A stretch of 64,000 bases of DNA from the NCBI RefSeq assembly GCF_054482595.1, contig NZ_CM137008.1; one strand, written 5' to 3'. Below the pieces are notes generated by a model, which saw nothing but the letters and a program-made list of their open reading frames with translations, searched no databases and was not told where the DNA came from. Numbering within the stretch: position 1 is the first letter of the stretch; every line of letters starts with the position of its first letter. The position numbers and the translations under genes were made by a program. This document shows, one piece after another, positions 1 to 16,807 of the stretch.

Positions 1-431
1 AACTGGCTCGTAAAGAAGATATGCAACTGAGTGCTCATATTAACCCAGAGACATTTGACGTTGAGTTAATTGATGAGAAGGGATCTGTCATTAATCGTAA
101 GTTACTATCTGCCGGTGAAAAGCAGATTTATGCCATTGCTATTCTTGAGGCGCTAGCAAAAACTTCTGGTCGTGATTTGCCGGTGATTATTGATACGCCA
201 TTAGGACGTCTGGATTCACAACATCGGGATAAACTAATTAACCATTATTTCCCATTTGCCAGCCATCAAGTGGTGCTATTGTCTACCGATACGGAAGTGG
301 ATGAACGTTATTTTGTTGACCAATTACGTGATGATATTTCTCATGCTTACGAGATAGTATTTAACACGCATACTAAATCATCAGCGTTGAAGCCCGGTTA
401 TTTCTGGGAATTAACTAAGGAGGCTATCTGA
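1..431 (+). CDS. dndD: DNA phosphorothioation protein DndD, C-terminal part (gene starts upstream of window)
   Basis: Frame is open from position 1; translation contains SMC/ABC-type signature LSAGEKQ followed by D-loop-like IIDTPLGRLD, as remembered for DndD C-termini. Stop TGA at 429-431 overlaps the dndE ATG (TGATG). Confidence 0.75.
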   Translation, partial: LARKEDMQLSAHINPETFDVELIDEKGSVINRKLLSAGEKQIYAIAILEALAKTSGRDLPVIIDTPLGRLDSQHRDKLINHYFPFASHQVVLLSTDTEVDERYFVDQLRDDISHAYEIVFNTHTKSSALKPGYFWELTKEAI

Positions 432-787
432 TGCTCCCGAATCGAATGGTGCTGAATCGTCAGACTGAAGAGCAGCTTAAAAGATTGAAAGGGTATACAG
501 GGATCACACCTAATGTCGCTGCCCGATTGGCATTTTTCCGCTCGGTGGAGAGTGAGTTTCGCTATTCATCAGAACGGGATAATCGGAAACTAGATGGTTC
601 GCTGGTGTTGGATAAGATTACGTGGCTGGGGGAGACATTACAGACTACGGAATTGGTATTGAAGATGCTTTATCCGCAGTTAGCTCAGAAGGATATGGTT
701 AAAGCATGGGCTGCGCATGTGGAGGATGGGATTGCGGCGTTAAGGAATCATAAGAGTCTATTAAACTTTATTAAATCAATAGATTAA
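431..787 (+). CDS. dndE: DNA phosphorothioation protein DndE (118 aa)
   Basis: Small protein directly coupled to dndD; motif GITPNVAARLAFFRS resembles the DndE family; size and position are typical for dndE as last gene of dndBCDE. Confidence 0.7.
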   Translation: MLPNRMVLNRQTEEQLKRLKGYTGITPNVAARLAFFRSVESEFRYSSERDNRKLDGSLVLDKITWLGETLQTTELVLKMLYPQLAQKDMVKAWAAHVEDGIAALRNHKSLLNFIKSID

Positions 788-795
788 GAATTTTT

Positions 796-826
796 AGGCC
801 ATCCAAATTAACAATATGGATGGCCT
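796..826. terminator. Perfect 10-bp inverted repeat (aggccatcca / tggatggcct, 11-nt loop) between convergent dndE and DGQHR genes; possible bidirectional terminator or RNA-stabilising hairpin
   Basis: Inverted repeat read directly from sequence; no clean U-run on either side, so terminator function is uncertain. Confidence 0.35.
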
Positions 827-845
827 GAACAAAATTTAGTCAATT

Positions 846-2006
846 TTAAAAATCTGTTTTGACATTTTCGTTTAAATAATCATATATTTTTCGCTGACCC
901 ACAGTTGTTGATGTATACTCTGTATTTTTTGTAAACTCCTCAGGATTCACAGTTTTCAATGCAGAGCACAGCTTTTCAATATTTTCTTTGTTAATTTTAG
1001 GCATGTCCATCAATTTTTTACGTAGAAACTGAAATAATGCAGAAATACCGACAGATCTAACTAACACTGTGCCTTTCTCAATACATACATTAGCCCAAAA
1101 ATGATCTTTTATCGCTGAAAAATAAATTTTCAATATTTGCTCTATCGCCTTATCATTGCCTTTTATATAAAACCATCGCAATGGGCTTTTATCCTTGCTG
1201 TTTTTATTATCAAGCCTGCCCCTTCCTTTTTCTTTTTCATCCGAATCAATTGCATTGATGGTATATCTATCAGCACGAGGGTTTTTAGATATTAGTGATA
1301 ATACACCATCAATAAATACAGACGATGATATAGACCAGTCATTTTCAGTAATTTCATTCAATACTCTATTTTTTAATCGTCTGTAGAAAGGATATTCATC
1401 TGTTTTATTAAATTTCTCACTAAAATATACAGCAAGCAAATCAGGAGGCCAATACTCTCTGGATATATCATCAAGAGAGTATCCAAAGAGTCTATATGCT
1501 AAACTTTTAGGAACTTTTTGTTGGTTAAAATTAATTGTTGAAAATATAGTTGCTTGATTGGATGGTGGTAATGAGTTATAAATTGAACAAGGTAATTGAA
1601 TATCTTTATTCTTAGCATACTTAAATCCTAATAATCTGTGCTGTCCATCGATAATAGAACATAATCTTAGATTTATATTCGGTATTATTATCTTATATAA
1701 TCAATTCTCACTTTTTTTAAACTCCCATTTGTCATCTTCCTTTGCAGGTGTACCATCTTCATTATGATTGACAGAGAGTATGATTGAGTTTGGAAATGCA
1801 GCCTCATCGGAGTCTATGAATTTTGCTATGTCTAAGGCTCTTGGCATAGACTCTTTCCTCTGCACACCTGATATTTCCCCATCATCCATTTCCGCCTGAT
1901 TCACATAAATACATTTCAATAAATCTTCGGCAGACATAACCGTCTGAAAGAATTCGCCGTATGGTTGGGTGACCTTAATTGCATGGATCTCAATAGAATT
2001 AGACAT
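846..2006 (-). pseudogene. DndB-like DGQHR-domain protein interrupted by an in-frame TGA (codon 102, plus-strand 1701-1703); possibly pseudogene, readthrough gene or sequencing error
   Basis: Minus-strand frame is continuous from ATG at 2006 to stop at 846-848 except for one TGA; N-terminal part has DndB-like AIKVTQPYGEFFQTVM and GVQR motifs, and the region just after the stop reads CSIIDGQHRLLGF (DGQHR signature). Very AT-rich. Confidence 0.65.
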
Positions 2007-2525
2007 TTATAGCCCCTCACCTGGCTCATCATTAGAACTCATATTCCTTAATTCATCAGACACTAATGAATCTGGAGTTACAGGGATTTTAAAATCAGGC
2101 TTAACAACGGTAATGGAAAACCATAATATTATAGTTATAATAAGTGATGAAATTAACATGAAATTGACGTCATTTTTTAATCCAAAAAATAAAAAAACAA
2201 ATGATATGAACCATAAAAATATTGAACAAGATATTCTAACTTGTTTACGGTGCCTTTCAGATAAAGAAATAGGATTTTCGTTCTCGTCATCTCTGGATAA
2301 ACACTCCGCGGCTAATACGCCCAATGTGGTAATAATAAATGAAAAAATAGAAAAACCCAACTGCGTATTATCTTTTAAAAATAATGGGCCAATCCATATT
2401 CCGCAGGTTGATACAAATAATGTCACCAAAGATATAAAAATAAATTTTGGCTGAATAATTCTTGGATATAATCCTAAGATATCTTTCCACAAGTTCACCC
2501 AATGTATCATATCATTTCTCGACAT
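2007..2525 (-). CDS. Small hydrophobic protein with about 4 predicted transmembrane helices (172 aa), function unknown
   Basis: ORF with four long hydrophobic stretches; its TAA stop (2007-2009) directly abuts the ATG of the DGQHR gene (translational coupling); AGGG Shine-Dalgarno-like sequence upstream; 37 bp downstream of the dptH stop on the same strand. Confidence 0.5.
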   Translation of the reverse strand: MSRNDMIHWVNLWKDILGLYPRIIQPKFIFISLVTLFVSTCGIWIGPLFLKDNTQLGFSIFSFIITTLGVLAAECLSRDDENENPISLSERHRKQVRISCSIFLWFISFVFLFFGLKNDVNFMLISSLIITIILWFSITVVKPDFKIPVTPDSLVSDELRNMSSNDEPGEGL

Positions 2526-2562
2526 GCTTTTTACCCTAACCTTGTACTATCTACAAAAATAA

Positions 2563-5500
2563 TCAAAAAACAAGCTCCCAAAACGCTCTATCTCGCATCT
2601 TGCTAACCCGCTTATCCCCATCAACATACAGACTGAAATGTTTTTCAAGCTGCCGAATCTGCCCCATTAACGACTCCTGTTCGCCCTTATCATCCACGTT
2701 GAATACAGCCTTGATATCCGCATTTTTAATTTCGGACACACGATGAATAACCCAGGTTAGAATATATGAAGCGTAATTGTTCTCTCCAGTTTTGAAGTGG
2801 GTAATTTCCTGCGTTGACAGGATCGCTCCAACACCATATTCACGACCTTCCTTAAGGATCTTCCTCAGACTGGAAAAGTCCTGGCGCATAAAGTTATCTG
2901 CCTCATCCACCAGAATCATCTTGGTGAGCTGACGATAATCCCCCTGAATCACTGGCTTGCCGCGTTTTTGCATTTGTGCATAAAACAGATCCAGGGTTAG
3001 CGCAACCACCAGGTTTTGAATCTCTGATGAGTAGCCAGCCAATTCGATAACTGTGACACCATCCACCAGATCATACAGACTCGTCATTTTCTCTGGGTCT
3101 GTTTCAAATATCTGAAACCCAGCTAAGTTATAAAGCGCGGCGTACAATGAGTCTTCTTCTACTTTTTCCTGAGCCAGATATCGCTGCCACACATCTTCTA
3201 TGGTCGGTGCAACACGGTTCCAGGTTGAGCGATCATGAGGCACTATTCCTGCTAATTCATAGCACTCCATGATTAGCGTAACCAGTTTCATACGCTGTTT
3301 CACACCCAGGTTATAGGCTTTCCCCATTGTTTCAGAAAATGCGATTGCGGTATGTCTGGGTAACATGGGCATATCACCAAACAGTGACAAAGGGTTATAA
3401 GGTAGTAACGATAATTGATATTTCTTACCGCCAGTAGCCTTCAGAAAAGCCTCGTCCACATAGTCAGATTTATAATCAAAGATCAGTAAACCAATCGATT
3501 TTCCATCAACGTTACAGGATTGGTTACGCATTAATTGTGTCACCAGCGATTTGGTAAATTGCGTTTTCCCGGTCCCCATCGTACCGATGATGCCTGTGTT
3601 GGTATTCATAAACTTCGTGGTGTTGGTCGGTTCCCAGAATAACGGGGTTTGCCGTGTAGCGTCATGACCAAATAATACTTGTAAGGGTACAGTGCTGACC
3701 TCTGGTGTCGGCTTTGGAATATCAGGTCGTGTGTCTGGCGGTGTCGTTACCTGCACTCCCGATGCTGATGGAGATGGGTGCTCATCACTCTCTGGCTTCA
3801 GACGGTATTTATCTGGTACCCGGTAGCGTTCAGCCAATGGCAATTTACCTTCACGGGTAGTGATTAACGAGGATAGTAATGAATAAGGAATTTCGATCTG
3901 TAAGATATTCGCTGTCGTCTCTTTATAGGAGAGATCGAAGCAAGATCCGCTGTCTACATGTGCAACAACAAAGCCATTAGCATAGTCTTTTAACTCACCC
4001 AACTGATAGTCACCGGTCAACCACCATTCGCGGCGATCCAACAGGGGAGCCAGCTTATCACTGTCCAGCACACCGTACAGCTGAAGTTTCTCTACCTGCA
4101 TCAGCACCTGTCGAATAAAGAGCGCGCGATAAAGTTGCGATGCCAGTGTATGCGGCTCCAGAATATCCTGCTGTAAATAACGTTTAAGCTCAGCAGCCTG
4201 CTGGCCCGCATAGTTGTAATCTGGTCGAGCGCCGGTTTTGACTTCCAGCGGCAGTAAATAGAGACGGTTTTCTTTAAAACCAACAAAGAGCACATCATCA
4301 GAGATTGCGCCTTTACGGTACCCCTGTAGATTTCTTGATAAATCGCTTTCCTTCATCTTTAGCCCGACGTTACCAGATACGCGAATCATTTCGGCTACAG
4401 ATAGCGGTACCCAGCAGATATCAGACTCACTCAGCATGGACTGTACAAATTTATACGCGCCAATGATGCCATATTTCTCTTTGCGCTCTTTTTCACTGGA
4501 GCGCAACATCTTCAGCAACCACTCACCGTTAAAAGCATTAAATTCGGCAAGTAGATGCTGGCTATCAACGGCAGATTGCCCGGACTGGCTTTCGGTCTGG
4601 AGCAGGCGGAGGAATAGATCGACCTGCTTCGTTACCGTCACTGCATCGTAGCCTGCACAACTAGTGTACTGATCGGAATAGTGGATCAGCACAACATCTT
4701 TCTGGCTAGTAAAGAAGTCAAGAGTAACTTTAGGGTCAATAATGGTGGTCCAGAGTGCACTGTTGTAAGAATAATTGAGTAGCTGTTTAAAATTGCCGCT
4801 TACGGCCAATCCAATCCCTTGTCCGTGGTATTGACTGTTGCTCTGACGCGCTGGCTGCCACAGGCAGCCCACTAACCGGGCAAGTCGTAGAGCGCAGTAA
4901 GATTCAGTATCAACATTCCGCAGGCCAAACGCGGTAAAGTAAGCATCCCCCTGTGTTTCAGCTCCTTCTCCGGAAATCAGCCCATGACACAGTACACCGC
5001 TGGCAGCATCCTCAATGCGGATCTGGCGGCAATCCACCGGAGCTGTATTGGTGAAAAACGCCAAATGTGCATAGGCCAATTTGTCGCTTTCTGACGGCAG
5101 GACAAATTTGCTGAACGTTAACCGACTGCGTAACAGGTCAATCAGCATATCGGCCTCAGCTCGCCACGCACCGCGGTTCAGGTCAAGGTCGTTTTTAAGC
5201 TGTTCATAGCTGCCACTCTCGGCAAAGCGATCAAACATATTTGGCAGCAGGCGTTCATCGTAGCAATTTACATGCACCGAAATAGCATGCTCTTTTTCCT
5301 GCTTAAAATATTCCACTAACCCCAGAAACAGTTCTTTCGCTGTTCCCTGATTAATAGCATTAATAATCAATGCATTGTTTCCGGGACTCTGAAATAGCCG
5401 GGCGTAGGCTTCGGTAAATTCATTGAGCTTGTCTTTTACCAAACGTTTTACGTAATCGTGGCTCACCTGGCGCTGGGGAACGACATCGATCCAGAAGCGA

Positions 5501-7638
5501 TTTTCTTCCACCGGCTGCAACTGTGCGTATTCGTGTTCACTGTGGTAAACGAATGGCATCAAGCCGGACACCACCAGACGATCAAGCGTAATGGTCGGTA
5601 GTGTGGCAAATGACGCTGAGTCGTATTGTTCCTGCTCTGCGCAGATAGTTTGTACCAGTTGTAAATGGTAGGCCAACACTAGGGGATGCAACGGGGAGAG
5701 ACGTTCATGACTGTCGACATTACAAATACCCAGATGCAGCAGGCGCTTTTCCTGCGCTGTTAACGCTCTGCTCAACTCGATTTGTTGAAGCGCCTGTTCA
5801 AAGGTCGTCACTATATGGCTTACCAGCGCGCAGTATTCTGCTGACCACGATACTAGGCTAGGTAAAGTACCGCAGCGCTGGTAGTAGAGGAATAATTGGT
5901 CGTAGGCGTTATAGAGATCGGGGTGGATGGCAACGAGTTCATCCAGCGCAAACGCGCTATCGTCATCTCCTGTCCCCAAAAGACGTTGATCAACTAATGA
6001 GGCTTCCAGCGCCAGTAACTGCTGGCGAACACCGACAACCTTGTGTTCGGTATTATCAAGAATGATACGACCCTTCAATCGGTTCCAGGACGCATTCCCG
6101 TCTTCTTTGAACAGTTTATTGAAACGACTCTGGTCAAAAAGTAGCGGTAAGGTTAACCCTTCTTCGGCTCCCGGCCCTTCGATATTGAATGCCAGACAAG
6201 AATCACCTGAAACAAGCTTAAATTGGATCAGATCGCTTTGATTTGCCAGTGTTTCAAAATTCACCAATGCATAATGCTGGCAGTCAATATCACCATTTTC
6301 TTCATCCAGTATACAGACTTGGCTACCCGACTCAGCGATTCGTAGTTCGTTGTCTTCGCGTTGGAGTGTGATTTGTGGTTTACCTGGCTCGATACGGAAA
6401 CAATGCTGAATATCGTCTAGCCAGAATTGTCCTTGTCTGACCAGTAACAGGCGGAACTTGTACTCTTCGGCTGAATTATTGCGATTAGTCAGTTCGAGGC
6501 TAAAGAAGCAGGGATTCCCATCGAAAGGAACCGACGCCATAATACGGGAGCTTTTACCCCCTGCACGACTAATTCGCCAGAAACGCTCTTTTTTTAACTG
6601 ACGATGATGCGCAATTTTTATCTGGTTATCCTGAAGATCGTTGCCCTGAAAGCAAAACTCCAGCTCAGTTTGCGATTGTTCGGGTGGTACCTGTACCAGT
6701 AGGCTGATATCGCGCTTGCCTGCTTTACTTGCGCTTTTCGCCCGTTGCCAAATCACGCCATTTTCGACCGTGATATCATCCAGTACCAGTTTTTGTTCGC
6801 GGTTCTGTTCTTTTTCGTTTAGATAAACAGCGAAATCAAGCTCGCGCCAGTCGTCTTTATCATTGAAATGTTCCTGAATAAATTTGGCGCTGAATTCAGT
6901 TAATACGTTCTCCAGTTGCCCACTGTAGCGTTCAACGCTGTCCTCGATTTGACGAAATAACTTCCTGTTTTCATTCAGTCGGGTATGGAGCTGTTTCTGG
7001 CTAAAATTCAGTAGTTCATCATCTTTAAACAGCGATAGCTCGGAGAAATCCAGATTGCCGTCATCCAGCAGGCGATACAACGACGAGAAGCCAAATACGG
7101 TCGCACCTTCATCCAGTACCGTTGTTCGTTGATCCTTTAATAAGCAACGCGACAACTCTGAACGGTTGTTGTCCGTCGTGATCAACTTTTCCAATTCATG
7201 ACTGAAGGTTTCGGGGTGCCAGATAGCTCCCGGTGCCGCGACGTCTTTTGTGCTGTTAATCAGGGTGTCCAGCATGCTGTTATGAATAATCAGCAGTGCA
7301 GTTTTGGCAAACACCCCGCTGCGGCCAGCAACTTCATCGCGTAAATGGGATATGTAGTTTTCCGTGAATGCTGGCGCTGCGGCTCCGTGCAGCACCGGAA
7401 TAAGCTGAATACCATTACAGGAGAGACAGGCAAGGCGCTGCTCTGGCGCAATTTCCAGATGATTGTCACCTGCCAGGTCAACAAAAGCCTGCCAGAGTTG
7501 TAGAGCATTGTCAGGGTCAGGAGATTTAAACTGGTAACGCTCACCAGGTTGAATAATGCCACTAACCCATTCAATAAAGGTTTCCGCCAGATAGGTTTCA
7601 TACTGTTTTACGGACATACACGGCGTCTCCACTGTCAC
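2563..7638 (-). CDS. dptH: DptH/DndH-like large ATPase/helicase-type protein of the phosphorothioate-dependent restriction module (1691 aa)
   Basis: 5076-bp ORF with Walker A (GIIGTMGTGKTQF) and Walker B-like (ILVDEADNF) motifs; third gene of a three-gene operon adjacent to dndDE; gene sizes match what I recall for dptFGH of Salmonella/E. coli dnd islands. Start may be the downstream ATG at 7617. Confidence 0.75.
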   Translation of the reverse strand: MTVETPCMSVKQYETYLAETFIEWVSGIIQPGERYQFKSPDPDNALQLWQAFVDLAGDNHLEIAPEQRLACLSCNGIQLIPVLHGAAAPAFTENYISHLRDEVAGRSGVFAKTALLIIHNSMLDTLINSTKDVAAPGAIWHPETFSHELEKLITTDNNRSELSRCLLKDQRTTVLDEGATVFGFSSLYRLLDDGNLDFSELSLFKDDELLNFSQKQLHTRLNENRKLFRQIEDSVERYSGQLENVLTEFSAKFIQEHFNDKDDWRELDFAVYLNEKEQNREQKLVLDDITVENGVIWQRAKSASKAGKRDISLLVQVPPEQSQTELEFCFQGNDLQDNQIKIAHHRQLKKERFWRISRAGGKSSRIMASVPFDGNPCFFSLELTNRNNSAEEYKFRLLLVRQGQFWLDDIQHCFRIEPGKPQITLQREDNELRIAESGSQVCILDEENGDIDCQHYALVNFETLANQSDLIQFKLVSGDSCLAFNIEGPGAEEGLTLPLLFDQSRFNKLFKEDGNASWNRLKGRIILDNTEHKVVGVRQQLLALEASLVDQRLLGTGDDDSAFALDELVAIHPDLYNAYDQLFLYYQRCGTLPSLVSWSAEYCALVSHIVTTFEQALQQIELSRALTAQEKRLLHLGICNVDSHERLSPLHPLVLAYHLQLVQTICAEQEQYDSASFATLPTITLDRLVVSGLMPFVYHSEHEYAQLQPVEENRFWIDVVPQRQVSHDYVKRLVKDKLNEFTEAYARLFQSPGNNALIINAINQGTAKELFLGLVEYFKQEKEHAISVHVNCYDERLLPNMFDRFAESGSYEQLKNDLDLNRGAWRAEADMLIDLLRSRLTFSKFVLPSESDKLAYAHLAFFTNTAPVDCRQIRIEDAASGVLCHGLISGEGAETQGDAYFTAFGLRNVDTESYCALRLARLVGCLWQPARQSNSQYHGQGIGLAVSGNFKQLLNYSYNSALWTTIIDPKVTLDFFTSQKDVVLIHYSDQYTSCAGYDAVTVTKQVDLFLRLLQTESQSGQSAVDSQHLLAEFNAFNGEWLLKMLRSSEKERKEKYGIIGAYKFVQSMLSESDICWVPLSVAEMIRVSGNVGLKMKESDLSRNLQGYRKGAISDDVLFVGFKENRLYLLPLEVKTGARPDYNYAGQQAAELKRYLQQDILEPHTLASQLYRALFIRQVLMQVEKLQLYGVLDSDKLAPLLDRREWWLTGDYQLGELKDYANGFVVAHVDSGSCFDLSYKETTANILQIEIPYSLLSSLITTREGKLPLAERYRVPDKYRLKPESDEHPSPSASGVQVTTPPDTRPDIPKPTPEVSTVPLQVLFGHDATRQTPLFWEPTNTTKFMNTNTGIIGTMGTGKTQFTKSLVTQLMRNQSCNVDGKSIGLLIFDYKSDYVDEAFLKATGGKKYQLSLLPYNPLSLFGDMPMLPRHTAIAFSETMGKAYNLGVKQRMKLVTLIMECYELAGIVPHDRSTWNRVAPTIEDVWQRYLAQEKVEEDSLYAALYNLAGFQIFETDPEKMTSLYDLVDGVTVIELAGYSSEIQNLVVALTLDLFYAQMQKRGKPVIQGDYRQLTKMILVDEADNFMRQDFSSLRKILKEGREYGVGAILSTQEITHFKTGENNYASYILTWVIHRVSEIKNADIKAVFNVDDKGEQESLMGQIRQLEKHFSLYVDGDKRVSKMRDRAFWELVF

Positions 7639-8923
7639 TCATTCGCTCCACATTTCCCATACGTTCATAAAACGCTACCAGCGTTTGTGCCGACTGGTTA
7701 TCCAGATAAAATCCGCGCTGTTCAAAGCCGCGCAGCAACTCATGCAGGCGTAGTTTGTCATTTTTACCCACAGTGAGATTGGTCAGCAGCAGCAGACGAT
7801 CCTGATTCAGTACCAGTACTTTTCCCGCCCGACCACGTACCTGAATGAAATCGGTGCAGATCTGGGTTTCAAGCTCGTTGATGTATTTCCGGTTAACTGT
7901 CGCACGATCAGATTTCTTATCCTGAAACTGTTCAACAGCAACGGTTAATAATTGTTTAAAAGCTTCTTCCAGCGTAACGGCTTGCGTATACTTCGATGCC
8001 GAAAGCTCGCGTTTTTCGATAAACTCCTGCAAATAATTATTGAGATCTTGCAGTAATTGAGATGAGTTATCAGAAAAATTTAAGCAATCCTGATAGACCT
8101 GCCAGAGTGGACGCTTCTTATCTCCTTTTATTTGTAGAACTTCCAGCGCGGAGAGTATTGGGAAAAGTTTTTCACTTTGACGAGCGAACCACTTATAACC
8201 AAAGCGTTTTATTTGATCCCGTTCAGAACTGGCTTTTTCAGTGTCGAGAATAAAGAAAAGCGACTTACTTTGTGGCTCGCCGTCCTGCCAGTTGTCCAGA
8301 TTGAGCGCTAGCTGGGCACACCAGCTAAAGGCATATAAACGCAGAGTATTAGTCAGTTCTTGTAACAAATATTGAGGGTGTTCTGCCAAAAACGCCAGAT
8401 CAGACTGAAAACAAGTCACCAGATAGGGAAGGTAGGGTTGTTCTTCAGAGAATGGGCCTTTTCCCAATAACTTTATTTTTTCATTGAGCTTATTTAGCAT
8501 TTGCTGCTCAATGAAGTTCAGCTTATCCTGGATAGGATATTCCAAGCTGAAATCTCCCATTAGATTAGCAAACAGAGTGCCAAGGCGTTTATCGGCCATT
8601 GAAGCGCCACTTATTTTTTCGCCATCAAACTGAGCATGAAATAGTAAAAAAAGCGGAGATACACGAAAGATATCTTCACTGGAAAAATACATCCGTTCCA
8701 GTACAGTCCAGAATGCTGGTTCATCAAGCAATTCTTGCAAATGAGCCTTGCAATCATCGCGAAATTGACTGGGAGTATAGGCATCAATTTTACGCTTCAG
8801 GGCGTAACTAAGCACCAATCCGGTGACAAATTGCCAGTTAATATCATTGTTTTTGTTACGTATCGGCAGATAACTATCCAGTTGATTATTACCTACTTTT
8901 AACGTCGTTGCGATAGGGTACAT
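7598..8923 (-). CDS. dptG: DptG/DndG-like protein (441 aa)
   Basis: 1326-bp ORF between dptF and dptH on the same strand, 4-nt gap from dptF stop; size and context match dptG. Confidence 0.7.
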   Translation of the reverse strand: MYPIATTLKVGNNQLDSYLPIRNKNNDINWQFVTGLVLSYALKRKIDAYTPSQFRDDCKAHLQELLDEPAFWTVLERMYFSSEDIFRVSPLFLLFHAQFDGEKISGASMADKRLGTLFANLMGDFSLEYPIQDKLNFIEQQMLNKLNEKIKLLGKGPFSEEQPYLPYLVTCFQSDLAFLAEHPQYLLQELTNTLRLYAFSWCAQLALNLDNWQDGEPQSKSLFFILDTEKASSERDQIKRFGYKWFARQSEKLFPILSALEVLQIKGDKKRPLWQVYQDCLNFSDNSSQLLQDLNNYLQEFIEKRELSASKYTQAVTLEEAFKQLLTVAVEQFQDKKSDRATVNRKYINELETQICTDFIQVRGRAGKVLVLNQDRLLLLTNLTVGKNDKLRLHELLRGFEQRGFYLDNQSAQTLVAFYERMGNVERMSDSGDAVYVRKTV

Positions 8924-8927
8924 TCCA

Positions 8928-10577
8928 CTAACCCTCCATACCGCTAATGGTGATCATGTCGTCGTCCGCTTTAGCGCGATAAACTCGCCGCCCACCAGCA
9001 TAAAACTTGATTTCGCTGCTGGATTTGGCCTGTTCAGTAATCAAATCAACGATTTCGTCCAGTAGAACAATGGCATTTTTATCGTATTTATTGGGGCGAT
9101 AGCCATTGTTTAATTTGTTCAAAAGTTCAAATAAATTAAGTCCGATACGAACTGGTAACAGAGAGTTTTGCCCAACTTTTAAATGCACGTCGAAGCCAGT
9201 AGGGTGGGCCGTATTTTTATTGCGGATGGCCTCCCAGTCAGGTTTCAATTCGACTGGCGCGGTTATTTTTACCCCACCATATTCACCTAAAAAGAACTCT
9301 TCTTTTTGCATACTCAATTCCGGCGCTTTGCGGTTTGCATAGCGCTGAATACCAGCAATAAGTTCGGATGTATAAAACCGGTTCAGTGCTTTTTTCTGCT
9401 CTGAGTCAGCGATGTAATTTTTGTGCAGATGCCAGATTTCTGAATAATGCTCAAATAAAGATTCATTGAAGAATACGGAAAATTTCTGATGATAATTATT
9501 CCCCAGAGATTCATCCTGCAGCAACCAGAAGAGCCGAATTAATGAAGCCGCATCACCCGGATTAACGCACTGGCGATCAAATCTAATGTGTAATGGCGCG
9601 AGTGCAGCTAAAAAATCATCCAGTTCAGGGTCAACCAGGCCCAATTCGTAGCGCAAAATAAACTGATCGATTTCATAGGTGTGCAGCCTAGCAGGATCAA
9701 AATCAGAAACTTTTTTAATCAGGTCGTTTTCTGCCCCAGTGAAAAGATTATCAAATAAATACCCCGGCCCCATAAGCAAATGATGCAGAAAATCCAATAG
9801 AGTTCGGGTTGTCACAAACTGATCTTTAATCAGGCGGGCCTTAAAGAGCTGAGTGATGAGAACATCCTGAACACCCGGCAGACAAAGTAATTTATAGTTA
9901 GCAACTTCTTTCAGCTCAGGGTTAACGGTCTCATCATGTCGAAAAATAAACTGAAACAAATTACTATCATCATTACGGGTTAAATTATCCAGTAATGTTT
10001 TAATAAACGATGAATACTGTTTTTTTTCATTAAACTGGAATTTAGGGTAATGCTCAAAGTCAAAAAAAGAACAATGCCCACTGCGGTATGGGCGGCTTTC
10101 TTCCTGATCTGCTGACAAGAAAGAATCGATCGCAGTGCGGATCGCCAGATGGCATTCAGCACCTTCTCTGGCAAAATTGGCGAGCATCCCGGTATTGATG
10201 CCTATAAGCAAAGGAGATGAGTATTGGTGATGATTGCTAAATAAATCATTTAAAGCATCAATAGCTGATTGCCGGGGAGCAAAGCTGTGTGTTGCATCCA
10301 GATGAAAACTAAAGCGCTGCTGATAACGAGGGTTTGACTTACAACGGGTCAAAATTTCGGACTTTCCATCACCACTACTGCCACACAAAAAGATGATTTC
10401 ACCGGGCTTAGCAACATCCAGATAACGTTGCAGCTCAGTTTCAATTTCTTGTTTAACAAAGAGTTGTTCTTTTAACTGATCGAACTCATCCTTTTGACGA
10501 TGCGTTACCGTGGTTACGGAAAACGAAGATGACTTCGCAAGTACACCCAACGCTTTACGTAATGTGATTGCGCTCAT
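8928..10577 (-). CDS. dptF: DptF/DndF-like P-loop ATPase (549 aa)
   Basis: 1650-bp ORF with Walker A-like motif FLCGSSGDGKSEI; first gene of the operon, preceded by an AT-rich 5' region. Confidence 0.7.
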   Translation of the reverse strand: MSAITLRKALGVLAKSSSFSVTTVTHRQKDEFDQLKEQLFVKQEIETELQRYLDVAKPGEIIFLCGSSGDGKSEILTRCKSNPRYQQRFSFHLDATHSFAPRQSAIDALNDLFSNHHQYSSPLLIGINTGMLANFAREGAECHLAIRTAIDSFLSADQEESRPYRSGHCSFFDFEHYPKFQFNEKKQYSSFIKTLLDNLTRNDDSNLFQFIFRHDETVNPELKEVANYKLLCLPGVQDVLITQLFKARLIKDQFVTTRTLLDFLHHLLMGPGYLFDNLFTGAENDLIKKVSDFDPARLHTYEIDQFILRYELGLVDPELDDFLAALAPLHIRFDRQCVNPGDAASLIRLFWLLQDESLGNNYHQKFSVFFNESLFEHYSEIWHLHKNYIADSEQKKALNRFYTSELIAGIQRYANRKAPELSMQKEEFFLGEYGGVKITAPVELKPDWEAIRNKNTAHPTGFDVHLKVGQNSLLPVRIGLNLFELLNKLNNGYRPNKYDKNAIVLLDEIVDLITEQAKSSSEIKFYAGGRRVYRAKADDDMITISGMEG

Positions 10578-10794
10578 AACTTCATGTTCTCAAAAGTAGG
10601 ATTATACCTATTCTATAAAAGCTATCCGCTGATATCTATAGGCACTTTGAGACATTTATTACGGGCAATTTTAAAATTGTATCTTTTCCATCCGTACACA
10701 AAACACATCCAGAGATGGCGGGGAAAATCCATCTATCAACCAGTTCCACTTTGGAAATTGCTTGATTAGTAGTATCTTAATCAAACACATACGC

Positions 10795-10975
10795 TAAATA
10801 TTACCCCCGATTGATTTTCGCATAGTCAAACAGCGTAATCGATCTCTCCCTATTCGCATCCAGAAAATCAGCCCACCATACTGCAAATCAGCTCGCGCTC
10901 ATCCAGATGTTCTGCCTTATGGATATACGCCCCCTTACCGATGTGACTCATCTGACGTTCAGCCGCTTTATCTCA
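10795..10975 (-). pseudogene. Decayed 3' fragment of a P4-type integrase gene (remnant of a second int copy)
   Basis: About 180 bp with roughly 75-80 percent identity (by eye) to the 3' end of the intact integrase gene at about 13930-14110 (for example gcatccagaaaatc...ttatggatatacgc...ctcatctgacgttca shared); same orientation; 5' two-thirds of the gene absent. Confidence 0.6.
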
Positions 10976-11072
10976 TGTTGTTCTGGTCTCAATACTTCCA
11001 TGCCGTTGCAATTACCTCTTAAACCAGCCCTTACCATTTTTATGGGTACGATAAGAAAACTTTATCGGGCAC

Positions 11073-11103
11073 GATCGATTTTATCGATCGATTCGATCGA
11101 AAA
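11073..11103 (+). promoter_or_regulatory. Cluster of three GATC sites inside tandem tcgatcgat-like repeats, about 90-115 bp upstream of the outer-membrane protein gene
   Basis: GATC at 11073-11076, 11086-11089 and 11095-11098, each inside CGATCG; read directly from sequence. Regulatory role is hypothetical. Confidence 0.3.
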
Positions 11104-11189
11104 CATTCCTTTTACCTTATCTTTTTCATGGTCTTAGAATGAGCAACCCCATTTATCGTTCGGGGAAAGTGATAGCGGAGATGATTGAA

Positions 11190-11930
11190 ATGAATAAGGT
11201 TATTGCGGTTTCAGCGCTTGCCATGGCAGGCATGTTTTCGACCCAGGCTCTGGCTGATGAAAGCAAAACAGGCTTTTATGTGACCGGTAAAGCAGGTGCT
11301 TCTGTTATGTCACTTGCAGACCAGCGTTTCCTGTCGGGGGATGGAGAGGAAACATCAAAATATAAAGGCGGTGATGGCCATGATACGGTATTCAGTGGCG
11401 GTATCGCGGCCGGTTATGATTTTTACCCGCAGTTCAGTATTCCGGTTCGTACGGAACTGGAGTTTTACGCTCGTGGAAAAGCTGATTCGAAGTATAACGT
11501 AGATAAAGACAGCTGGTCAGGCGGTTACTGGCGTGATGACCTGAAGAATGAGGTGTCAGTCAACACACTGATGCTGAATGCGTACTATGACTTCCGGAAT
11601 GACAGTGCATTCACACCATGGGTATCTGCAGGGATTGGCTACGCCAGAATTCACCAGAAAACAACCGGTATCAGTACCTGGGATTATGGGTACGGAAGCA
11701 GTGGTCGCGAATCGTTGTCACGTTCAGGCTCTGCTGACAACTTCGCATGGAGCCTTGGCGCGGGTGTCCGCTATGACGTAACCCCGGATATCGCTCTGGA
11801 CCTCAGCTATCGCTATCTTGATGCAGGTGATAGCAGTGTGAGTTACAAGGACGAGTGGGGCGATAAATATAAGTCAGAAGTTGATGTTAAAAGTCATGAC
11901 ATCCTGCTTGGTGTGACTTATAACTTCTGA
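11190..11930 (+). CDS. Outer-membrane beta-barrel protein, Hek/Tia/Hra-like adhesin/invasin family suspected (about 246 aa precursor)
   Basis: Start chosen at internal ATG 11190 preceded by GGAG at -12; typical signal peptide MNKVIAVSALAMAGMFSTQALA then DESK; alternating aromatic/glycine-rich beta-strand pattern; C-terminal YNF with terminal Phe typical of OMP beta-barrels. Family name is from memory only. Confidence 0.65.
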   Translation: MNKVIAVSALAMAGMFSTQALADESKTGFYVTGKAGASVMSLADQRFLSGDGEETSKYKGGDGHDTVFSGGIAAGYDFYPQFSIPVRTELEFYARGKADSKYNVDKDSWSGGYWRDDLKNEVSVNTLMLNAYYDFRNDSAFTPWVSAGIGYARIHQKTTGISTWDYGYGSSGRESLSRSGSADNFAWSLGAGVRYDVTPDIALDLSYRYLDAGDSSVSYKDEWGDKYKSEVDVKSHDILLGVTYNF

Positions 11931-12103
11931 CGACACTGCTCCTGAACGATAATACGTATATTTAGCAATTAAGATAATTGCGTATCTTCTGCAATTAAAC
12001 AGAAATACCCTGCAGTCTATTACTGCAGGGTTATCTGTTTCACAGATAATTTCTGATTTTTATTATCCTGTTCTCTTCATCATAATGTTGTCGATATACT
12101 CCG

Positions 12104-13603
12104 ATGAATATCAGAAAACTGTTTTGTCCGGGAAACACACCCCGGATTTTATTGTTTTTATTCTTTTTTGTTGTTTCTGCAATAACCACAATTGCATGCG
12201 GATACACTGAGAAGAATGCCACAGGAAATGTGCTGCTTCTGTTTCTCCTTCTTCTCCTTGCACACAGAAATACCCTCACATCCATTACAGCGCTGTTATT
12301 TCTGTTCTGTTGTGCACTGTATGCGCCTGCGGGTATGACGTACGGTAAAATCAACAACAGTTTTATTGTCGCGTTGCTGCAGACCACGGCTGATGAGGCT
12401 GCAGAGTTTACCGGGATGATTCCTGTTTATCATTTTCTGGTCAGTGCCGCGATTCTGGTATTCATGGTGATTTTCTGGCGGACACACCACCGCGGTCACC
12501 GTAACTGGCTGGCACTGCTGCTATTCGTATTATGCTCTGTAAACAGCTGGCCGTTGCGGATGGTTAAAGGAACTGTTGTGGGGACAACTGACACATTGCG
12601 TGAAATGCAGCGTTATAAACAACTGAGTCAGCACGGGGCTGATAACTGGAAAATCCTGCCGGGTGTGCCGTTGTATGACACGATTGTTATCGTTACTGGT
12701 GAGAGTGTGCGCAGGGATTATATGTCGGTATATGGCTATCCCGTGCCAACCACGCCGTGGCTGAATACTGCTCCCGGTTTATTTATTGACGGCTATACAT
12801 CGACAGCAGCCAGTACCGTACCTTCCCTGAGCCGGACACTGATTTATGACTATGAGCAGAACCCTGACTCCGGCAACAACGTGGTGGCGCTGGCAGCAAA
12901 AGCAGGATACAGCACATGGTGGATATCCAATCAGGGAAAACTGGGAGAGCATGACACACGCATCTCTGTTATTGCTTCTGATGCGGAGCATACCGTTTTC
13001 CTCAAGAAAGGCAGCTTCGCTTCCCGTAAAACGGATGACATGTTGTTGTTACAGGAAACAGAACGTGCGCTGGCGGATAAATCCTCGCCGAAGGTGATTT
13101 TCCTGCACATGATTGGCTCTCATCCGAATCCGTGTGACCGACTTAACTCCTGGCCGAATTATTACCTGGAGCAGTATCCCCGAAAGATTGCCTGTTACCT
13201 CGCCAGCATCAGTAAACTGGATAACTTTCTCGGTCAGCTTGATGGTATCCTTCGCCGGCATTCCCGTCACTTTGCAATGCTTTACTTTTCTGACCATGGG
13301 CTGTCGGTCAGCGACAGTGCTAATCCTGTTCATCATGATGGTCATGTGCAGGGGGGCTACAGCGTTCCCCTGATTATTACCGCCAGTGACATCACGTCTC
13401 ATCAGTCCGTCAGCAGGAAAATCAGTGCCCGTAATTTCGCAGGCATTTTTCAGTGGCTGACCGGTATTCGTACCGAAAATATAACGCCATTCAATCCGCT
13501 GACAGACGAAGATAATGAACCCGTTATGGTTTTTAACGGAGAGAAAAATGTGCCGGCAGACAGTCTGAAACCGCAGCCACTTATTCTTCCGGACCACAGG
13601 TAA
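12104..13603 (+). CDS. Inner-membrane sulfatase-family / phosphoethanolamine transferase-like protein (YhbX/YjgX-like, 499 aa)
   Basis: N-terminal hydrophobic helices followed by a periplasmic domain with motifs IVTGESVRRDY, HMIGSHPNP and LYFSDHG, typical of the alkaline-phosphatase-superfamily PEA transferases; position next to the leuX integrase matches the K-12 yjgX locus. Confidence 0.6.
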   Translation: MNIRKLFCPGNTPRILLFLFFFVVSAITTIACGYTEKNATGNVLLLFLLLLLAHRNTLTSITALLFLFCCALYAPAGMTYGKINNSFIVALLQTTADEAAEFTGMIPVYHFLVSAAILVFMVIFWRTHHRGHRNWLALLLFVLCSVNSWPLRMVKGTVVGTTDTLREMQRYKQLSQHGADNWKILPGVPLYDTIVIVTGESVRRDYMSVYGYPVPTTPWLNTAPGLFIDGYTSTAASTVPSLSRTLIYDYEQNPDSGNNVVALAAKAGYSTWWISNQGKLGEHDTRISVIASDAEHTVFLKKGSFASRKTDDMLLLQETERALADKSSPKVIFLHMIGSHPNPCDRLNSWPNYYLEQYPRKIACYLASISKLDNFLGQLDGILRRHSRHFAMLYFSDHGLSVSDSANPVHHDGHVQGGYSVPLIITASDITSHQSVSRKISARNFAGIFQWLTGIRTENITPFNPLTDEDNEPVMVFNGEKNVPADSLKPQPLILPDHR

Positions 13604-13926
13604 TCATATATGGCAAACTGTAATACAGTCTCTTGTACTGAAAAGGATTCTGTATAGAATAGAACCTGTATTCATATCAGCACAAGGGACCACCAAATCC
13701 CGGCAACATTCCTTACGTCAGTTATCCCGCATCACCCTGTGGGTGCGGGATTTTTTATGATGTTTCTTTTTATTGAATATATATAAATAACGAATAACTG
13801 CGGATTCTGATAATCCACCTGCAGGGAGCAATCCGGTAAACATTTAATACATCAGTTAATATCGTTTTGCCTTTTTAACAAAGAAAATATTCATGGAGTA
13901 AGTTCCCGGGCATTTGCCCGGGATGA

Positions 13927-15192
13927 TTACTGTTTTAATGGATTATTAATCTTTGCATATTCAAATGGACTGATAAATTTTTCTCTGTTTGCATCCAGAA
14001 AATCGGCCCACCATTGTAGCATCAAGCGGCGTTCTTCCAGATGCTCTGCTTTATGGATATACGCGGCCCTCACTGAATTTCGCTCCATGTGGCTCATCTG
14101 ACGTTCAACAGCATCACGAGACCACAAACCTGATTCGACCAATGAACTACAGGCCATTGTTCGAAAGCCATGACCACAAACCTCTACTTTTGTATCATAC
14201 CCCATGACCCGTAACGCACTATTTACCGTATTCTCACTCATGGGTTTGTGCGAATCGTGATCACCAATAAATATCAAGTCATGGGCCCCACAAAACTGTT
14301 TTATCTGCTTTAAAATTGCAAGAGCTTGCGTTGAAAGAGGCACTAGATGCGTTGTACGCATTTTTGAGCCTCTATGGGAATGTTTCACTCCAGGAATAGG
14401 CTCCCGCTCCGGTGGGATAGTCCATATAGACGCTTCGAAATCGATCTCTGACCAACGAGCAAAACGCAGCTCACTGGACCGAATAAAGATCAGCAAAGAG
14501 AGTTCTGTCGCCCATCGGGTTAGCGGCCTACCAGTATAGCTATCTATTTTTGTAAGCAACTCAGGGATGCGCTTTAATTCAAGCGCGGGACGATGTTGTC
14601 GATTACAGGAAGCAACCGCCCCAGCCATCTCTTGTGCCGGGTTATAATCAATTAACCCACTTTGCACTGCATAGCGCATGATGGCTGTAGTGCGCTGCTG
14701 AAGACGAGCGGCCACTTCAAGACGTCCAGACATTTCTACGGCCTTAATGGGTGCTAATAAATCTCGAGTTTTTAACTCAGCGATATTACGTTCACCAAGC
14801 GCTGCAAAAAGATTATCTTCCAGACTTTTTAGCACACGATGGGCGTGATCTTCAGACCACTTTTTATTGGTGCCATGCCACTCAATCGCGACTTCTTTAA
14901 AGGTTCGTGCTTTACTCTGTTCAACCTTATCATTTTTCTTTTTGTCTCCCGGATCGACGCCATTCGCAAGCAGCTTACGCGCCTCGTCACGACGTACTCT
15001 GGCATCCGCTAGTGTGATTTCAGGATAAACCCCAAGTGCCAGCATTTTTTGCTTTCCCTCATAACGGTACTGCAAACGCCAGTACTTAGAACCATTTGGA
15101 TGGACAAGCAGATGCATACCGCCACCATCAGTCAGCTTATATTGCTTATCCGTTGGCTTGGCTGCTCTGACTTTGATATCTGTTAATGCCAT
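13927..15192 (-). CDS. intB: P4-type tyrosine recombinase/integrase (IntB-like, 421 aa)
   Basis: Translation MALTDIKVRAAKPTDKQYKLTDGGGMHLLVHPNGSKYWRLQYRY... is a typical P4-family integrase N-terminus, with C-terminal catalytic region motifs (HGFR, Y near the C-terminus); start is adjacent to the 3' end of tRNA-Leu. Confidence 0.85.
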   Translation of the reverse strand: MALTDIKVRAAKPTDKQYKLTDGGGMHLLVHPNGSKYWRLQYRYEGKQKMLALGVYPEITLADARVRRDEARKLLANGVDPGDKKKNDKVEQSKARTFKEVAIEWHGTNKKWSEDHAHRVLKSLEDNLFAALGERNIAELKTRDLLAPIKAVEMSGRLEVAARLQQRTTAIMRYAVQSGLIDYNPAQEMAGAVASCNRQHRPALELKRIPELLTKIDSYTGRPLTRWATELSLLIFIRSSELRFARWSEIDFEASIWTIPPEREPIPGVKHSHRGSKMRTTHLVPLSTQALAILKQIKQFCGAHDLIFIGDHDSHKPMSENTVNSALRVMGYDTKVEVCGHGFRTMACSSLVESGLWSRDAVERQMSHMERNSVRAAYIHKAEHLEERRLMLQWWADFLDANREKFISPFEYAKINNPLKQ

Positions 15193-15207
15193 GCGTATTC
15201 CCTCCCT

Positions 15208-15265
15208 GTTGGTACAAGCATTATCGAACCGGAAATACCATCATCTGTACCAACATATGTTGGTA
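15208..15265 (-). promoter_or_regulatory. Repeated TGTTGGTA motif: perfect 18-bp palindrome taccaacatatgttggta (15248-15265) plus a third copy (15208-15217) upstream of int; candidate integrase/regulator binding sites in the int promoter-att region
   Basis: Motifs read directly from sequence between the int start codon (15192) and the leuX terminator. Confidence 0.3.
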
Positions 15266-15341
15266 GATGTACGTTGATATCGGTTGACCTTGAGAGAGTT
15301 AATATAGCGGGAAAGGTAGATAAACACTGGATTTCAGGCAT

Positions 15342-15366
15342 AAAAAAAGACCTCAGTTGAGGTCTA
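15342..15366 (-). terminator. Rho-independent terminator of leuX
   Basis: Hairpin agacctcagttgaggtct followed on the minus strand by a U-run (plus-strand A7 at 15342-15348), immediately 3' of the tRNA. Confidence 0.6.
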
Positions 15367-15378
15367 TTTACATACTTT

Positions 15379-15463
15379 TGGTGCCGAAGGCCGGACTCGA
15401 ACCGGCACGTATTTCTACGGTTGATTTTGAATCAACTGCGTCTACCGATTTCGCCACTTCGGC
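15379..15463 (-). tRNA. leuX: tRNA-Leu (anticodon CAA), leuX
   Basis: Minus-strand 85-nt sequence GCCGAAGTGGCGAAATCGGTAGACGCAGTTGATTCAAAATCAACCGTAGAAATACGTGCCGGTTCGAGTCCGGCCTTCGGCACCA, recognised as leuX with encoded CCA; P4-type integrase immediately 3'. Confidence 0.9.
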
Positions 15464-16678: not shown

Positions 16679-16807
16679 TCTCTTTGCCGGGTGCCTGTCG
16701 CCCGGCACTTAAATCTCTTTGGAAGGCGTCTCGCAATCTGCTGAATTTAGCGGTGAAGAGTGCGCAGCCGTTGCCTATACTCCAGGCAGGAAACTGGAGG
16801 AAATCTC

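Follow-up and report, generated by a model that had tools for sequence, protein, structure and literature searches.

The gene at positions 12104..13603 of the window (the whole 64,000-nucleotide stretch analysed here, from contig NZ_CM137008.1 of assembly GCF_054482595.1) probably encodes a functional inner-membrane phosphoethanolamine (PEA) transferase of an OpgE-like subfamily, situated in the conserved integrase-proximal backbone of P4-integrase islands. The gene and the parts of its product are placed as follows:

12104..13603, plus strand: intact coding sequence of a yjgX-type (OpgE-like) phosphoethanolamine transferase, 499 aa (ORF listing, Pfam, identical RefSeq CDS, dN/dS)
12104..12673, plus strand: N-terminal membrane domain, aa 1 to about 190, with five hydrophobic helices plus periplasmic/bridging helices, containing E98
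12395-12397, plus strand: codon of the invariant E98, within the N-terminal membrane domain
12680..13603, plus strand: periplasmic catalytic domain of sulfatase/alkaline-phosphatase fold (Pfam, PDB sequence alignments, invariant columns, paralog motifs, codon check)
12701-12703, 12815-12817, 13106-13108, and 13121-13123, plus strand: active-site codons of E200, T238, H335, and H340, respectively
13292-13294, 13295-13297, and 13331-13336, plus strand: active-site codons of D397, H398, and H410/H411, respectively

In the ORF listing of the window, the reading frame starts with ATG and runs without interruption to its full 499 aa, as the preliminary description of this DNA had claimed, and the probability of 499 random codons without a stop is about 4e-11. 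A frameshift or truncation relative to full-length relatives, which that description had named as a possible objection, was searched for and is absent: the alignment to OpgE spans aa 20-492 of the 499, and this length is full for a family of 483-523 aa. For E. coli W5-6, RefSeq annotates an identical gene, starting and ending at the same codons, with the product WP_024166268.1, “phosphoethanolamine transferase”, and the exact 499-aa protein is present on at least 1000 contigs. The gene is also named in published island surveys. Compared with the intact island alleles of leuX, pheU, pheV, and ST131, it gives dN/dS values of 0.07-0.19 at dS up to 0.26, which shows a long-standing constraint at the protein level, i.e., purifying selection. 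Minus-strand ORFs inside the gene (e.g., 13049..13597, 182 aa) were set aside, as they lie across a plus-strand gene under constraint and nothing else speaks for them.

The architecture of the product is that of the membrane-bound PEA transferases. Pfam Sulfatase (PF00884) covers aa 193-446 (E = 6.9e-37, 127.8 bits vs. a cutoff of 25), and EptA_B_N (PF08019) covers aa 44-144 marginally (23.2 bits vs. a cutoff of 22.3). Five hydrophobic segments occupy aa 10-35, 38-58, 56-79, 104-127, and 134-151, while the N-terminus and the loops 53-58 and 126-135 are rich in K/R, following a positive-inside pattern. The AF2 model is confident (pLDDT 89, pTM 0.81) and has N-terminal-domain helices at 12-31, 39-53, 57-80, 108-127, 135-145, and 149-177; it matches the catalytic domain of EcEptC structurally (E = 5e-18) and aligns end to end, over both domains, with MCR-1 (9nww_B, TMq 0.63) and NmEptA (5fgn, TMq 0.56). 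The three motifs singled out earlier were all located, GESVRRDY at aa 199-206, HMIGSHPNP at aa 335-343, and FSDHG at aa 395-399. Among 37 relatives, with identity down to 21%, E98, E200, T238, H335, H340, D397, and H398 are invariant and H411 is nearly so, and therefore the catalytic Thr and the metal ligands, the other point on which the assignment could have failed, are all in place and unchanged. These active-site residues line up with the E/T/H/H/D/H set of EptA, EptB, EptC, OpgE, and YhbX, and also, in PDB sequence alignments, with MCR-1 and EcEptC; we take the MCR-1 counterparts of E200/T238/H335/H340/D397/H398 to be E246/T285/H390/H395/D465/H466. With the sulfatase fold, the N-terminal membrane domain, and the Thr nucleophile plus Zn ligands that define this group all found, and with both Pfam domains detected, the protein belongs, as had been proposed, to the membrane enzymes of the PEA-transferase/sulfatase family.

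As to its closest kin, the earlier assignment to a YhbX/EptA-type enzyme was right about the superfamily and wrong about the nearest relative. OpgE is the nearest characterised paralog, with 30% identity along essentially its full length (aa 20-492 vs. 22-527, E = 2.6e-74, 234 bits), whereas the other characterised paralogs reach at most 107 bits, with EptA, EptB, EptC, and MCR showing 21-26% identity confined to the catalytic domain, and YhbX 33% over a 247-aa catalytic core only. OpgE was also the best-scoring paralog for every family member tested. In the NJ tree, the YjgX clade is sister to the OpgE clade, and P0059 and P0063/P0067/P0069 share a branch with OpgE_K12 apart from the YjgX clade; YhbX lies outside both clades, and EptA/MCR-1, EptB, and EptC(CptA) do not group with OpgE, YjgX, and YhbX. 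With none of the NCBIfam PEA-transferase models does the protein reach the curated cutoff; the top score is 108 bits for the CptA subfamily model (cutoff 404), and the others are those of the EptA equivalog models (57 vs. 561, and 39.4 vs. 660 for the E. coli type), EptB (47.8 vs. 493), and the MCR-type models (about 18-31 vs. about 1075-1250).

OpgE (YbiP) has been established experimentally as the osmoregulated periplasmic glucan (OPG) PEA transferase of E. coli (PMC3818809). Both proteins have an N-terminal multi-helix membrane domain and a periplasmic sulfatase domain, both share the E/T/H/H/D/H active site and a membrane-proximal Glu, and both genes look like single-gene transcription units (for opgE, PMC3818809), but OpgE has 527 aa vs. 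499 in the window protein. An ortholog of opgE would be expected at the core ompX-opgE locus and with high identity, whereas the window gene is borne on a mobile island at leuX, beside an integrase, and has the 30% identity given above; the window protein is a paralog, not an ortholog, of OpgE. EptA/MCR-1, EptB, and EptC(CptA) have in common with it the superfamily, fold, and catalytic residues, but their acceptors are lipid A and the LPS core. YhbX, a K-12 putative hydrolase, is of the same superfamily and likewise uncharacterised, and its gene adjoins the tRNA gene leuU just as the window gene lies near a tRNA, but its membrane domain cannot be aligned with ours. We also considered and rejected a kinship with the Shigella flexneri plasmid-borne O-antigen PEA transferase (opt/lpt-O): the sole small-plasmid PEA transferase found, H48 on a 7.5 kb plasmid, which we presume to be Opt-like, has 24% identity across 70% of the query and comes no nearer than the other paralogs do.

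The K-12 gene at this position, yjgX, had been given in the preliminary description as an interrupted pseudogene, and this proved correct: MG1655 b4575 is annotated as a pseudogene and has the same placement relative to leuX and intB, and the same orientation, as the window gene, of which it is the positional ortholog, while in ER2796 yjgX is flagged “frameshifted; internal stop; incomplete; missing N-terminus”. The two genes share 91.4% DNA identity over nt 314-1500, continuing past the stop, and the integrase/leuX flank shares 97.4%. In the K-12 copy, in contrast, the first 313 nt are missing, as is the adhesin gene upstream; the remnant carries a frameshift near codon 177 and stops at W350 and E472, and has FSDHG changed to FSGLG (D397-H398 to G-L), with an IS2 inserted about 84 bp past its stop. 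Other E. coli genomes also have broken copies, with the K-12-type 5' deletion, IS1 and IS2 insertions, or partial matches. The literature searched contained no work on the function of an intact YjgX-type protein, and most mentions of yjgX refer to a neutral integration site.

Around the PEA-transferase gene, the window contains the following features:

10810..10966, minus strand: degenerate C-terminal fragment of a second P4-type integrase, about 55 codons, upstream of the adhesin gene (tblastn to integrase aa 361-416)
11190..11930, plus strand: Hra1/Hek/Tia/Hes-family outer-membrane adhesin gene, 246 aa, or 263 aa from the upstream ATG at 11139 (Pfam OMP_b-brl, 6.5e-24)
12007..12031, no strand assigned: hairpin with a 10-bp stem between the adhesin and PEA-transferase genes, probable adhesin terminator
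12039..12066, plus strand: best sigma-70-like promoter match, TTCACA-16-TATTAT, 10/12, 38 bp upstream of the ATG (consensus match only)
13724..13751, plus strand: terminator-like hairpin and then a T-run, 120 bp past the PEA-transferase stop
13927..15192, minus strand: intact P4-type tyrosine integrase, convergent with the PEA-transferase gene (Arm-DNA-bind_3, Phage_int_M, and Phage_integrase; 97.4% DNA identity to the K-12 intB/leuX region)
15379..15463, minus strand: tRNA-Leu(CAA) gene leuX, with the island boundary at its 3' end

The gene thus lies beside the leuX integrase, as had been claimed. Identity to strain XH990, which is without the island module, breaks at 15378; no direct repeat of the leuX 3' end of 14 bp or more, as would mark the far end of the island or a tandem junction, was found in the window, which places the distal end of the island beyond coordinate 1. 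The 263-aa form of the adhesin is identical to “heat resistant agglutinin 1 [E. coli SMS-3-5]”, and the second-integrase fragment is annotated as an integrase pseudogene in W5-6 and occupies the same place in the pheU copy L019. The stem of the hairpin at 12007..12031, CCCTGCAG/CTGCAGGG, is kept in all five of the five E. coli island copies compared, and that at 13724..13751 is identical in L019 and altered in its 3' arm in another pheU copy, L020. Expression of the gene is putative: no clear Shine-Dalgarno precedes its ATG, promoter-like sites in the region are not above chance in number, so that the best match is not statistically distinctive, and an 8-bp deletion across the -10 of this match in the pheU alleles leaves it only partly conserved.

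A near-full-length copy of the PEA-transferase gene is found in about 1450 of 5426 complete E. coli genomes, and in 1296 genomes the adhesin gene is contiguous with it. The order adhesin, PEA transferase, integrase, tRNA recurs at leuX, pheU, and pheV, in the E. coli copies L018-L021 as well as in the Salmonella copy L006, where the homologous pair retains only 53-58% identity and the adhesin is still upstream. The gene is therefore part of a conserved integrase-proximal backbone module, not strain-specific cargo, and of the earlier suggestion of island cargo, the island location holds, but the word “cargo” does not suit a module that recurs at several tRNA loci and in roughly one in four complete E. 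coli genomes. Genes named “putative opgE / YjgX” have been reported beside integrases in the E. coli pap island, LAA, and GI-selC (PMC8946752; PMC6174562), which agree with the window in gene family and integrase-proximal position, and the O113:H21 pheV copy (L021) fits the LAA gap between hes and the integrase (PMC5539235); the window island, in contrast, lies at leuX, and in place of virulence genes it has a dnd/dpt phosphorothioation defence system. The idea that distant homologs are always on islands was rejected, given that the E. lignolyticus and Aquitalea copies lie among ordinary-looking chromosomal genes, and neither an integrase nor island genes are visible around them (the contig of the Erwinia homolog ends about 1.1 kb upstream of the gene), and therefore the YjgX-type family is not intrinsically mobile. 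Neither does the K-12 OmpX/OpgE adjacency mirror the adhesin/PEA-transferase pair; the local match between the window OMP and OmpX covers only 25 residues (E = 0.001) and the K-12 genes are convergent, which points to coincidence.

The enzyme could instead be a lipid A or LPS-core PEA transferase of the EptA/EptB/EptC/MCR kind, making the surface less negative and protecting the cell from cationic peptides and polymyxin. It shares superfamily, architecture, and active-site residues with these proteins, some database records name its relatives “lipid A phosphoethanolamine transferase”, and its top NCBIfam and PDB sequence matches are with CptA/EptC, the core heptose PEA transferase. We nevertheless hold this to be rather unlikely, given that the 21-26% identity to these enzymes stays within the catalytic domain while the OpgE alignment is full length, that the cutoffs of the lipid A and core models (404 for CptA, 660 for EptA, about 1075-1250 for MCR) lie far above the scores obtained (108, 39.4, and 18-31), and that the membrane domain, which selects the lipid substrate, is OpgE-like. 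Moreover, about one E. coli genome in four has this gene, which is not known to have been described as a determinant of colistin resistance; this also counts against a lipid A or core enzyme. C. jejuni EptC and Neisseria PptA modify proteins, and the enzyme might also act in concert with the neighbouring Hra1/Hek/Tia-type adhesin, by attaching PEA to it or by remodelling surface glycans so that this short adhesin becomes exposed. In every E. coli island copy examined, the adhesin gene directly precedes the PEA-transferase gene on the same strand, as it does in the Salmonella pair with its 53-58% identity, the two are contiguous in 1296 genomes vs. 1450 with a near-full-length PEA-transferase gene, and both are under purifying selection. 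On the other hand, the conserved hairpin and the separate promoter-like site between them make the genes look like separate transcription units, distant family members (E. lignolyticus, Erwinia, Aquitalea, the CP4-type island, and the plasmid paralog) have no OMP neighbour, and a simple explanation of the linkage is that both genes are inherited within one small module, which recombines as a whole. Hes and Hra1 alone confer haemagglutination, autoaggregation, and adhesion on E. coli HB101 (PMC5539235), so the adhesin does not depend on this enzyme. We consequently give a coupled function only a slim chance, and it is just as doubtful that the adhesin and OpgE-like PEA-transferase pair beside the integrase forms a functional unit of this island family instead of two hitch-hikers.

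Finally, the gene might look intact and still be a dispensable, decaying island remnant like K-12 yjgX, its lesions yet to come, as the many truncated or interrupted copies could suggest, together with a defensin screen in which a K-12 yjgX deletion had no confirmed phenotype, although the allele deleted there was already a pseudogene (PMC4808223). The selection analysis largely refutes this, since the dN/dS among intact alleles speaks for a long-standing constraint; the window protein also keeps all the catalytic residues, whereas the K-12 pseudogene has lost D397/H398 and gained stops, and its recurrence unchanged on so many contigs is equally at odds with decay. We regard such a remnant as highly improbable.

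Returning to a functional OpgE-like PEA transferase, its five N-terminal helices would anchor the enzyme so that its N-terminus lies in the cytoplasm and its C-terminal sulfatase-fold domain faces into the periplasm. If it works like EptA, MCR-1, and OpgE, PEA would be taken from phosphatidylethanolamine at the membrane surface, a covalent PEA-Thr238 intermediate would form at a Zn site made up of E200, T238, D397, and H398, with H335, H340, and H410/H411 assisting the chemistry of this site, and the PEA would then be passed to an acceptor facing the periplasm, so that the enzyme would modify the cell envelope. Relatives are the source here for the mechanism and the donor lipid and, most of all, for the acceptor. 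Judging from the nearest homology, the likeliest acceptor would not be lipid A but a glucan or glycan, for instance the osmoregulated periplasmic glucans; at only 30% identity, it could well differ from that of OpgE. Furthermore, carrier strains presumably have a chromosomal opgE already, and a purely redundant OPG role is thus hard to reconcile with strong purifying selection.

In summary, OpgE as the nearest characterised relative directs experiments to periplasmic glucans, not to lipid A or colistin resistance. K-12 yjgX, a locus in wide use as “neutral”, is what is left of a gene that many wild E. coli still have in intact form and under selection. The PEA-transferase gene almost always travels with Hra/Hek/Tia/Hes adhesin genes, which are used as virulence markers, and therefore, island phenotypes or GWAS hits (“putative opgE”) may involve it. 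If the pair did act as a functional unit, the enzyme might place PEA on a glycan of the surface or periplasm (OPG, LPS core, or O-antigen) or on the adhesin, and this could tune adhesin exposure, autoaggregation, Rcs signalling, or the masking of phage receptors to the benefit of the island, which would mean a new PEA-transferase specificity and a role for a gene carried by about a quarter of E. coli genomes.

The gene at the position of K-12 yjgX is an ORF of 499 uninterrupted codons starting with ATG (a run of this length without a stop has a chance probability of ~4e-11), located next to the leuX integrase and encoding, as the preliminary description had it, the motifs GESVRRDY (aa 199-206), HMIGSHPNP (aa 335-343), and FSDHG (aa 395-399). 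It is already known and annotated in RefSeq, where the same CDS of E. coli W5-6, identical in its ends and sequence, is WP_024166268.1, “phosphoethanolamine transferase”. Our analysis confirms the earlier observation and supports its interpretation with two refinements, namely, that the protein is better described as OpgE-like than as YhbX/EptA-like, and that the gene is island backbone instead of cargo. The features of the region are the following:

10810..10966, minus strand: remnant of a second integrase gene of the P4 type (~55 degenerate codons of its C-terminus), flanked by dptF and the adhesin gene
11190..11930, plus strand: adhesin/outer membrane protein (OMP) gene, 246 aa (263-aa form from an upstream ATG)
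12007-12031: conserved 10-bp hairpin, 3' of the adhesin gene
12039-12066: best promoter-like match of the region, 5' of the ATG of the phosphoethanolamine (PEA) transferase gene
12104..13603, plus strand: PEA-transferase gene
13724-13751: hairpin and T-run, 3' of the PEA-transferase stop
13927..15192, minus strand: tyrosine integrase, 421 aa (Arm-DNA-bind_3, Phage_int_M, Phage_integrase), downstream of and convergent with the PEA-transferase gene
15379..15463, minus strand: tRNA-Leu(CAA), leuX, beyond the integrase

The assignment to the membrane PEA-transferase/sulfatase family holds, with a Sulfatase domain (PF00884, 6.9e-37, aa 193-446), a marginal EptA/B N-terminal domain (PF08019, 23.2 vs. 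22.3 bits), five hydrophobic segments (aa 10-35, 38-58, 56-79, 104-127, and 134-151), and the active-site residues all being found. The N-terminus and the loops 53-58 and 126-135 are K/R-rich and loop 77-107 is acidic, a charge pattern from which we predict an N-in topology and a periplasmic catalytic domain. The homologs, from Escherichia, Salmonella, Erwinia, Pantoea, “[Enterobacter] lignolyticus”, Aquitalea, and others, span ~483-523 aa, and the 499-aa protein is therefore full length, with neither truncation nor frameshift relative to them. The catalytic Thr and the metal ligands are all present. Across 37 aligned members (21-93% identity), no substitution occurs at E98, E200, T238, H335, H340, D397, or H398, and hardly any at H411. 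These positions correspond to the E/T/H/H/D/H of E. coli EptA, EptB, EptC, OpgE, and YhbX and, in PDB sequence alignments, to the residues forming the Zn site and the nucleophile in MCR-1 and EcEptC. An AlphaFold2 model built on the 37-member alignment is confident (pLDDT 89, pTM 0.81), and its best Foldseek matches were the EcEptC catalytic domain (E = 5e-18), full-length MCR-1 (9nww_B, TMq 0.63), and Neisseria EptA (5fgn, TMq 0.56, both domains covered).

Among the five intact K-12 paralogs that we extracted, only OpgE matches the protein at full length (aa 20-492 vs. 22-527, 30% identity, E = 2.6e-74, 234 bits), whereas the matches to YhbX (33% over 247 aa, 107 bits), EptC (25%, 92 bits), EptB (23%, 55 bits), and EptA (22%, 45 bits) are confined to the catalytic domain. 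OpgE is also the top-scoring K-12 paralog for every YjgX-family member tested, and in a neighbour-joining tree the YjgX clade is sister to the OpgE-containing clade, with YhbX, EptC, EptB, and EptA successively outside. Since OpgE is the experimentally defined transferase placing PEA on osmoregulated periplasmic glucans (OPGs) (PMC3818809), the best label for the protein would be an OpgE-like paralog, neither an opgE ortholog nor a lipid A enzyme; the likeness to YhbX/EptA claimed earlier stands for the superfamily motifs but not for the nearest relative. Two of the K-12 paralogs adjoin tRNA genes, yhbX by leuU and eptB by proK. K-12 opgE adjoins the small OMP gene ompX, convergently, and the OMP of the window matches OmpX only marginally, over 25 aa locally, the resemblance of this arrangement to the window's pair of adhesin and PEA-transferase genes being probably coincidental.

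In MG1655, the same position is occupied by b4575 yjgX, an annotated pseudogene with IS2K between it and the intB pseudogene, and in ER2796 yjgX is flagged “frameshifted; internal stop; incomplete; missing N-terminus”. In our alignments, K-12 yjgX matches the window gene from nt 314 of the latter onward (91.4% identity) and shows a frameshift near codon 177, stops at the W350 and E472 codons, and FSGLG in place of the metal-ligand motif FSDHG; unlike the window gene, it has kept neither an open frame nor all of the catalytic residues. The IS2 is a simple insertion ~84 bp after the yjgX stop, and the integrase/leuX segment past it is 97.4% identical to the window. Therefore, both the description of the K-12 gene as an interrupted pseudogene and the positional orthology were correct.

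Some match to the gene occurs in 2973 of the 5426 complete E. coli genomes, and a copy with a coverage of 80% or more in 1450, with up to 5 copies per genome; the exact protein is found on at least 1000 contigs. The order of OMP gene (+), PEA-transferase gene (+), integrase (-), and tRNA (-) recurs in two pheU copies (L019 and L020), in the pheV copy of an O113:H21 strain, and in an ST131 island, sometimes with one or two genes inserted ahead of the integrase, and the integrase remnant is shared with L019, whose cargo differs. Thus, remnant, adhesin gene, PEA-transferase gene, integrase, and tRNA form a conserved unit, past which the cargo varies (dptFGH and dndBCDE in the window); the remnant itself points to an old scar, left by a tandem island or by recombination. 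The gene described as possible island cargo is, then, on an island, but as backbone shared by pheU, pheV, and ST131 islands, not as strain-specific cargo. The OMP is identical in its 263-aa form to “heat resistant agglutinin 1 [E. coli SMS-3-5]” and is annotated by RefSeq in some strains as invasin Tia, which makes it a member of the Hra1/Hek/Tia/Hes adhesin family. In the LAA island, the stretch that separates hes from the integrase, left without mention (PMC5539235), holds a counterpart of the gene, and a bacteraemia GWAS reported “putative opgE” genes beside intA/intS on a pap island (PMC8946752). A Salmonella homolog (58% identity) has an OMP gene of 53% identity directly 5', while more distant relatives (30-50%), among ordinary-looking chromosomal genes or on a CP4-type island or large conjugative-type plasmids, lack it. 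Large E. coli plasmids (92-173 kb) carry a paralog of 52% identity (511 aa, cluster of 1955 sequences) among DotM_C-like transfer, Hok/Gef, and exclusion-protein genes, also without an OMP neighbour.

The island part (1..15378) differs from W5-6 at 4 positions only, and from leuX onward the window differs from XH990 at 2 positions in ~19 kb, so that the strain has a W5-6-like island set in an XH990-like backbone. The leuX island of XH990 itself is another one, a defence island without an integrase (SNF2-related protein, DNA methyltransferase, DEAD/DEAH helicase, and phosphorothioated-DNA-binding endonuclease genes), with the boundary at 15378/15379, the leuX 3' end, and leuX looks like a hotspot exchanging alternative defence islands on one backbone. 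Window 1-10577 is DNA phosphorothioation cargo (dndD/E, a DGQHR-domain gene and a short dndB, apparently a split dndB, and the restriction genes dptH, dptG, and dptF), the distal island end being beyond the window start. Beyond leuX, ahr (NADPH-dependent aldehyde reductase, 15659-16678, plus strand) is interrupted in frame by a TAA at codon 29 (15743-15745, GELKP*DVEV), from a single C-to-T at 15743 relative to XH990, where ahr is intact, and it is therefore probably a recent pseudogene or re-initiated at GTG 15755 (307 aa). In the window (at 16678-16806), as in W5-6 and XH990, yjgR comes directly after ahr; idnK and idnD (GntII, L-idonate), which adjoin ahr in K-12, are absent from the window. 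By collinearity with W5-6, yjgN would lie at 26138-27335; the W5-6 copy carries an annotated frameshift, and the XH990 copy is intact.

That the gene is a decaying remnant is very improbable, being contradicted by its dN/dS of 0.07-0.19 (dS up to 0.26; pairwise Nei-Gojobori, five E. coli island alleles); the adhesin gives ~0.23 by the same method. A coupling of the transferase to the adjacent adhesin is suggested by their near-constant linkage (contiguous in 1296 genomes), but we hold it to be rather improbable, given that Hes and Hra1 work alone when expressed in HB101 (PMC5539235) and that both genes are apparently transcribed separately. The flanking hairpins and the promoter-like match suggest that the gene is monocistronic, as opgE reportedly is, the promoter match being weak evidence: promoter-like sites in the region do not exceed chance, its -10 match is deleted in pheU alleles, and no clear Shine-Dalgarno sequence precedes the ATG. 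A role in LPS or lipid A modification also seems unlikely, if less so, since the similarity to those enzymes is low and domain-limited, and the NCBIfam matches, all to PEA transferases, fall far under every curated cutoff (top CptA, 108 bits vs. 404), placing the protein in none of the named lipid A/core families.

Our searches of the literature on yjgX, yhbX, and opgE gave no functional work on any intact YjgX-type protein; K-12 yjgX is mostly mentioned as a neutral site for integration, and no defensin phenotype was confirmed for the deletion (PMC4808223). We consider it reasonably probable, from the combined analysis, that the protein is an active OpgE-like PEA transferase, which would take PEA from phosphatidylethanolamine, form a PEA-Thr238 intermediate at the Zn site E200/T238/D397/H398, and transfer it to a periplasm-facing glycan, with the OPGs being, by homology, the leading candidate acceptor.
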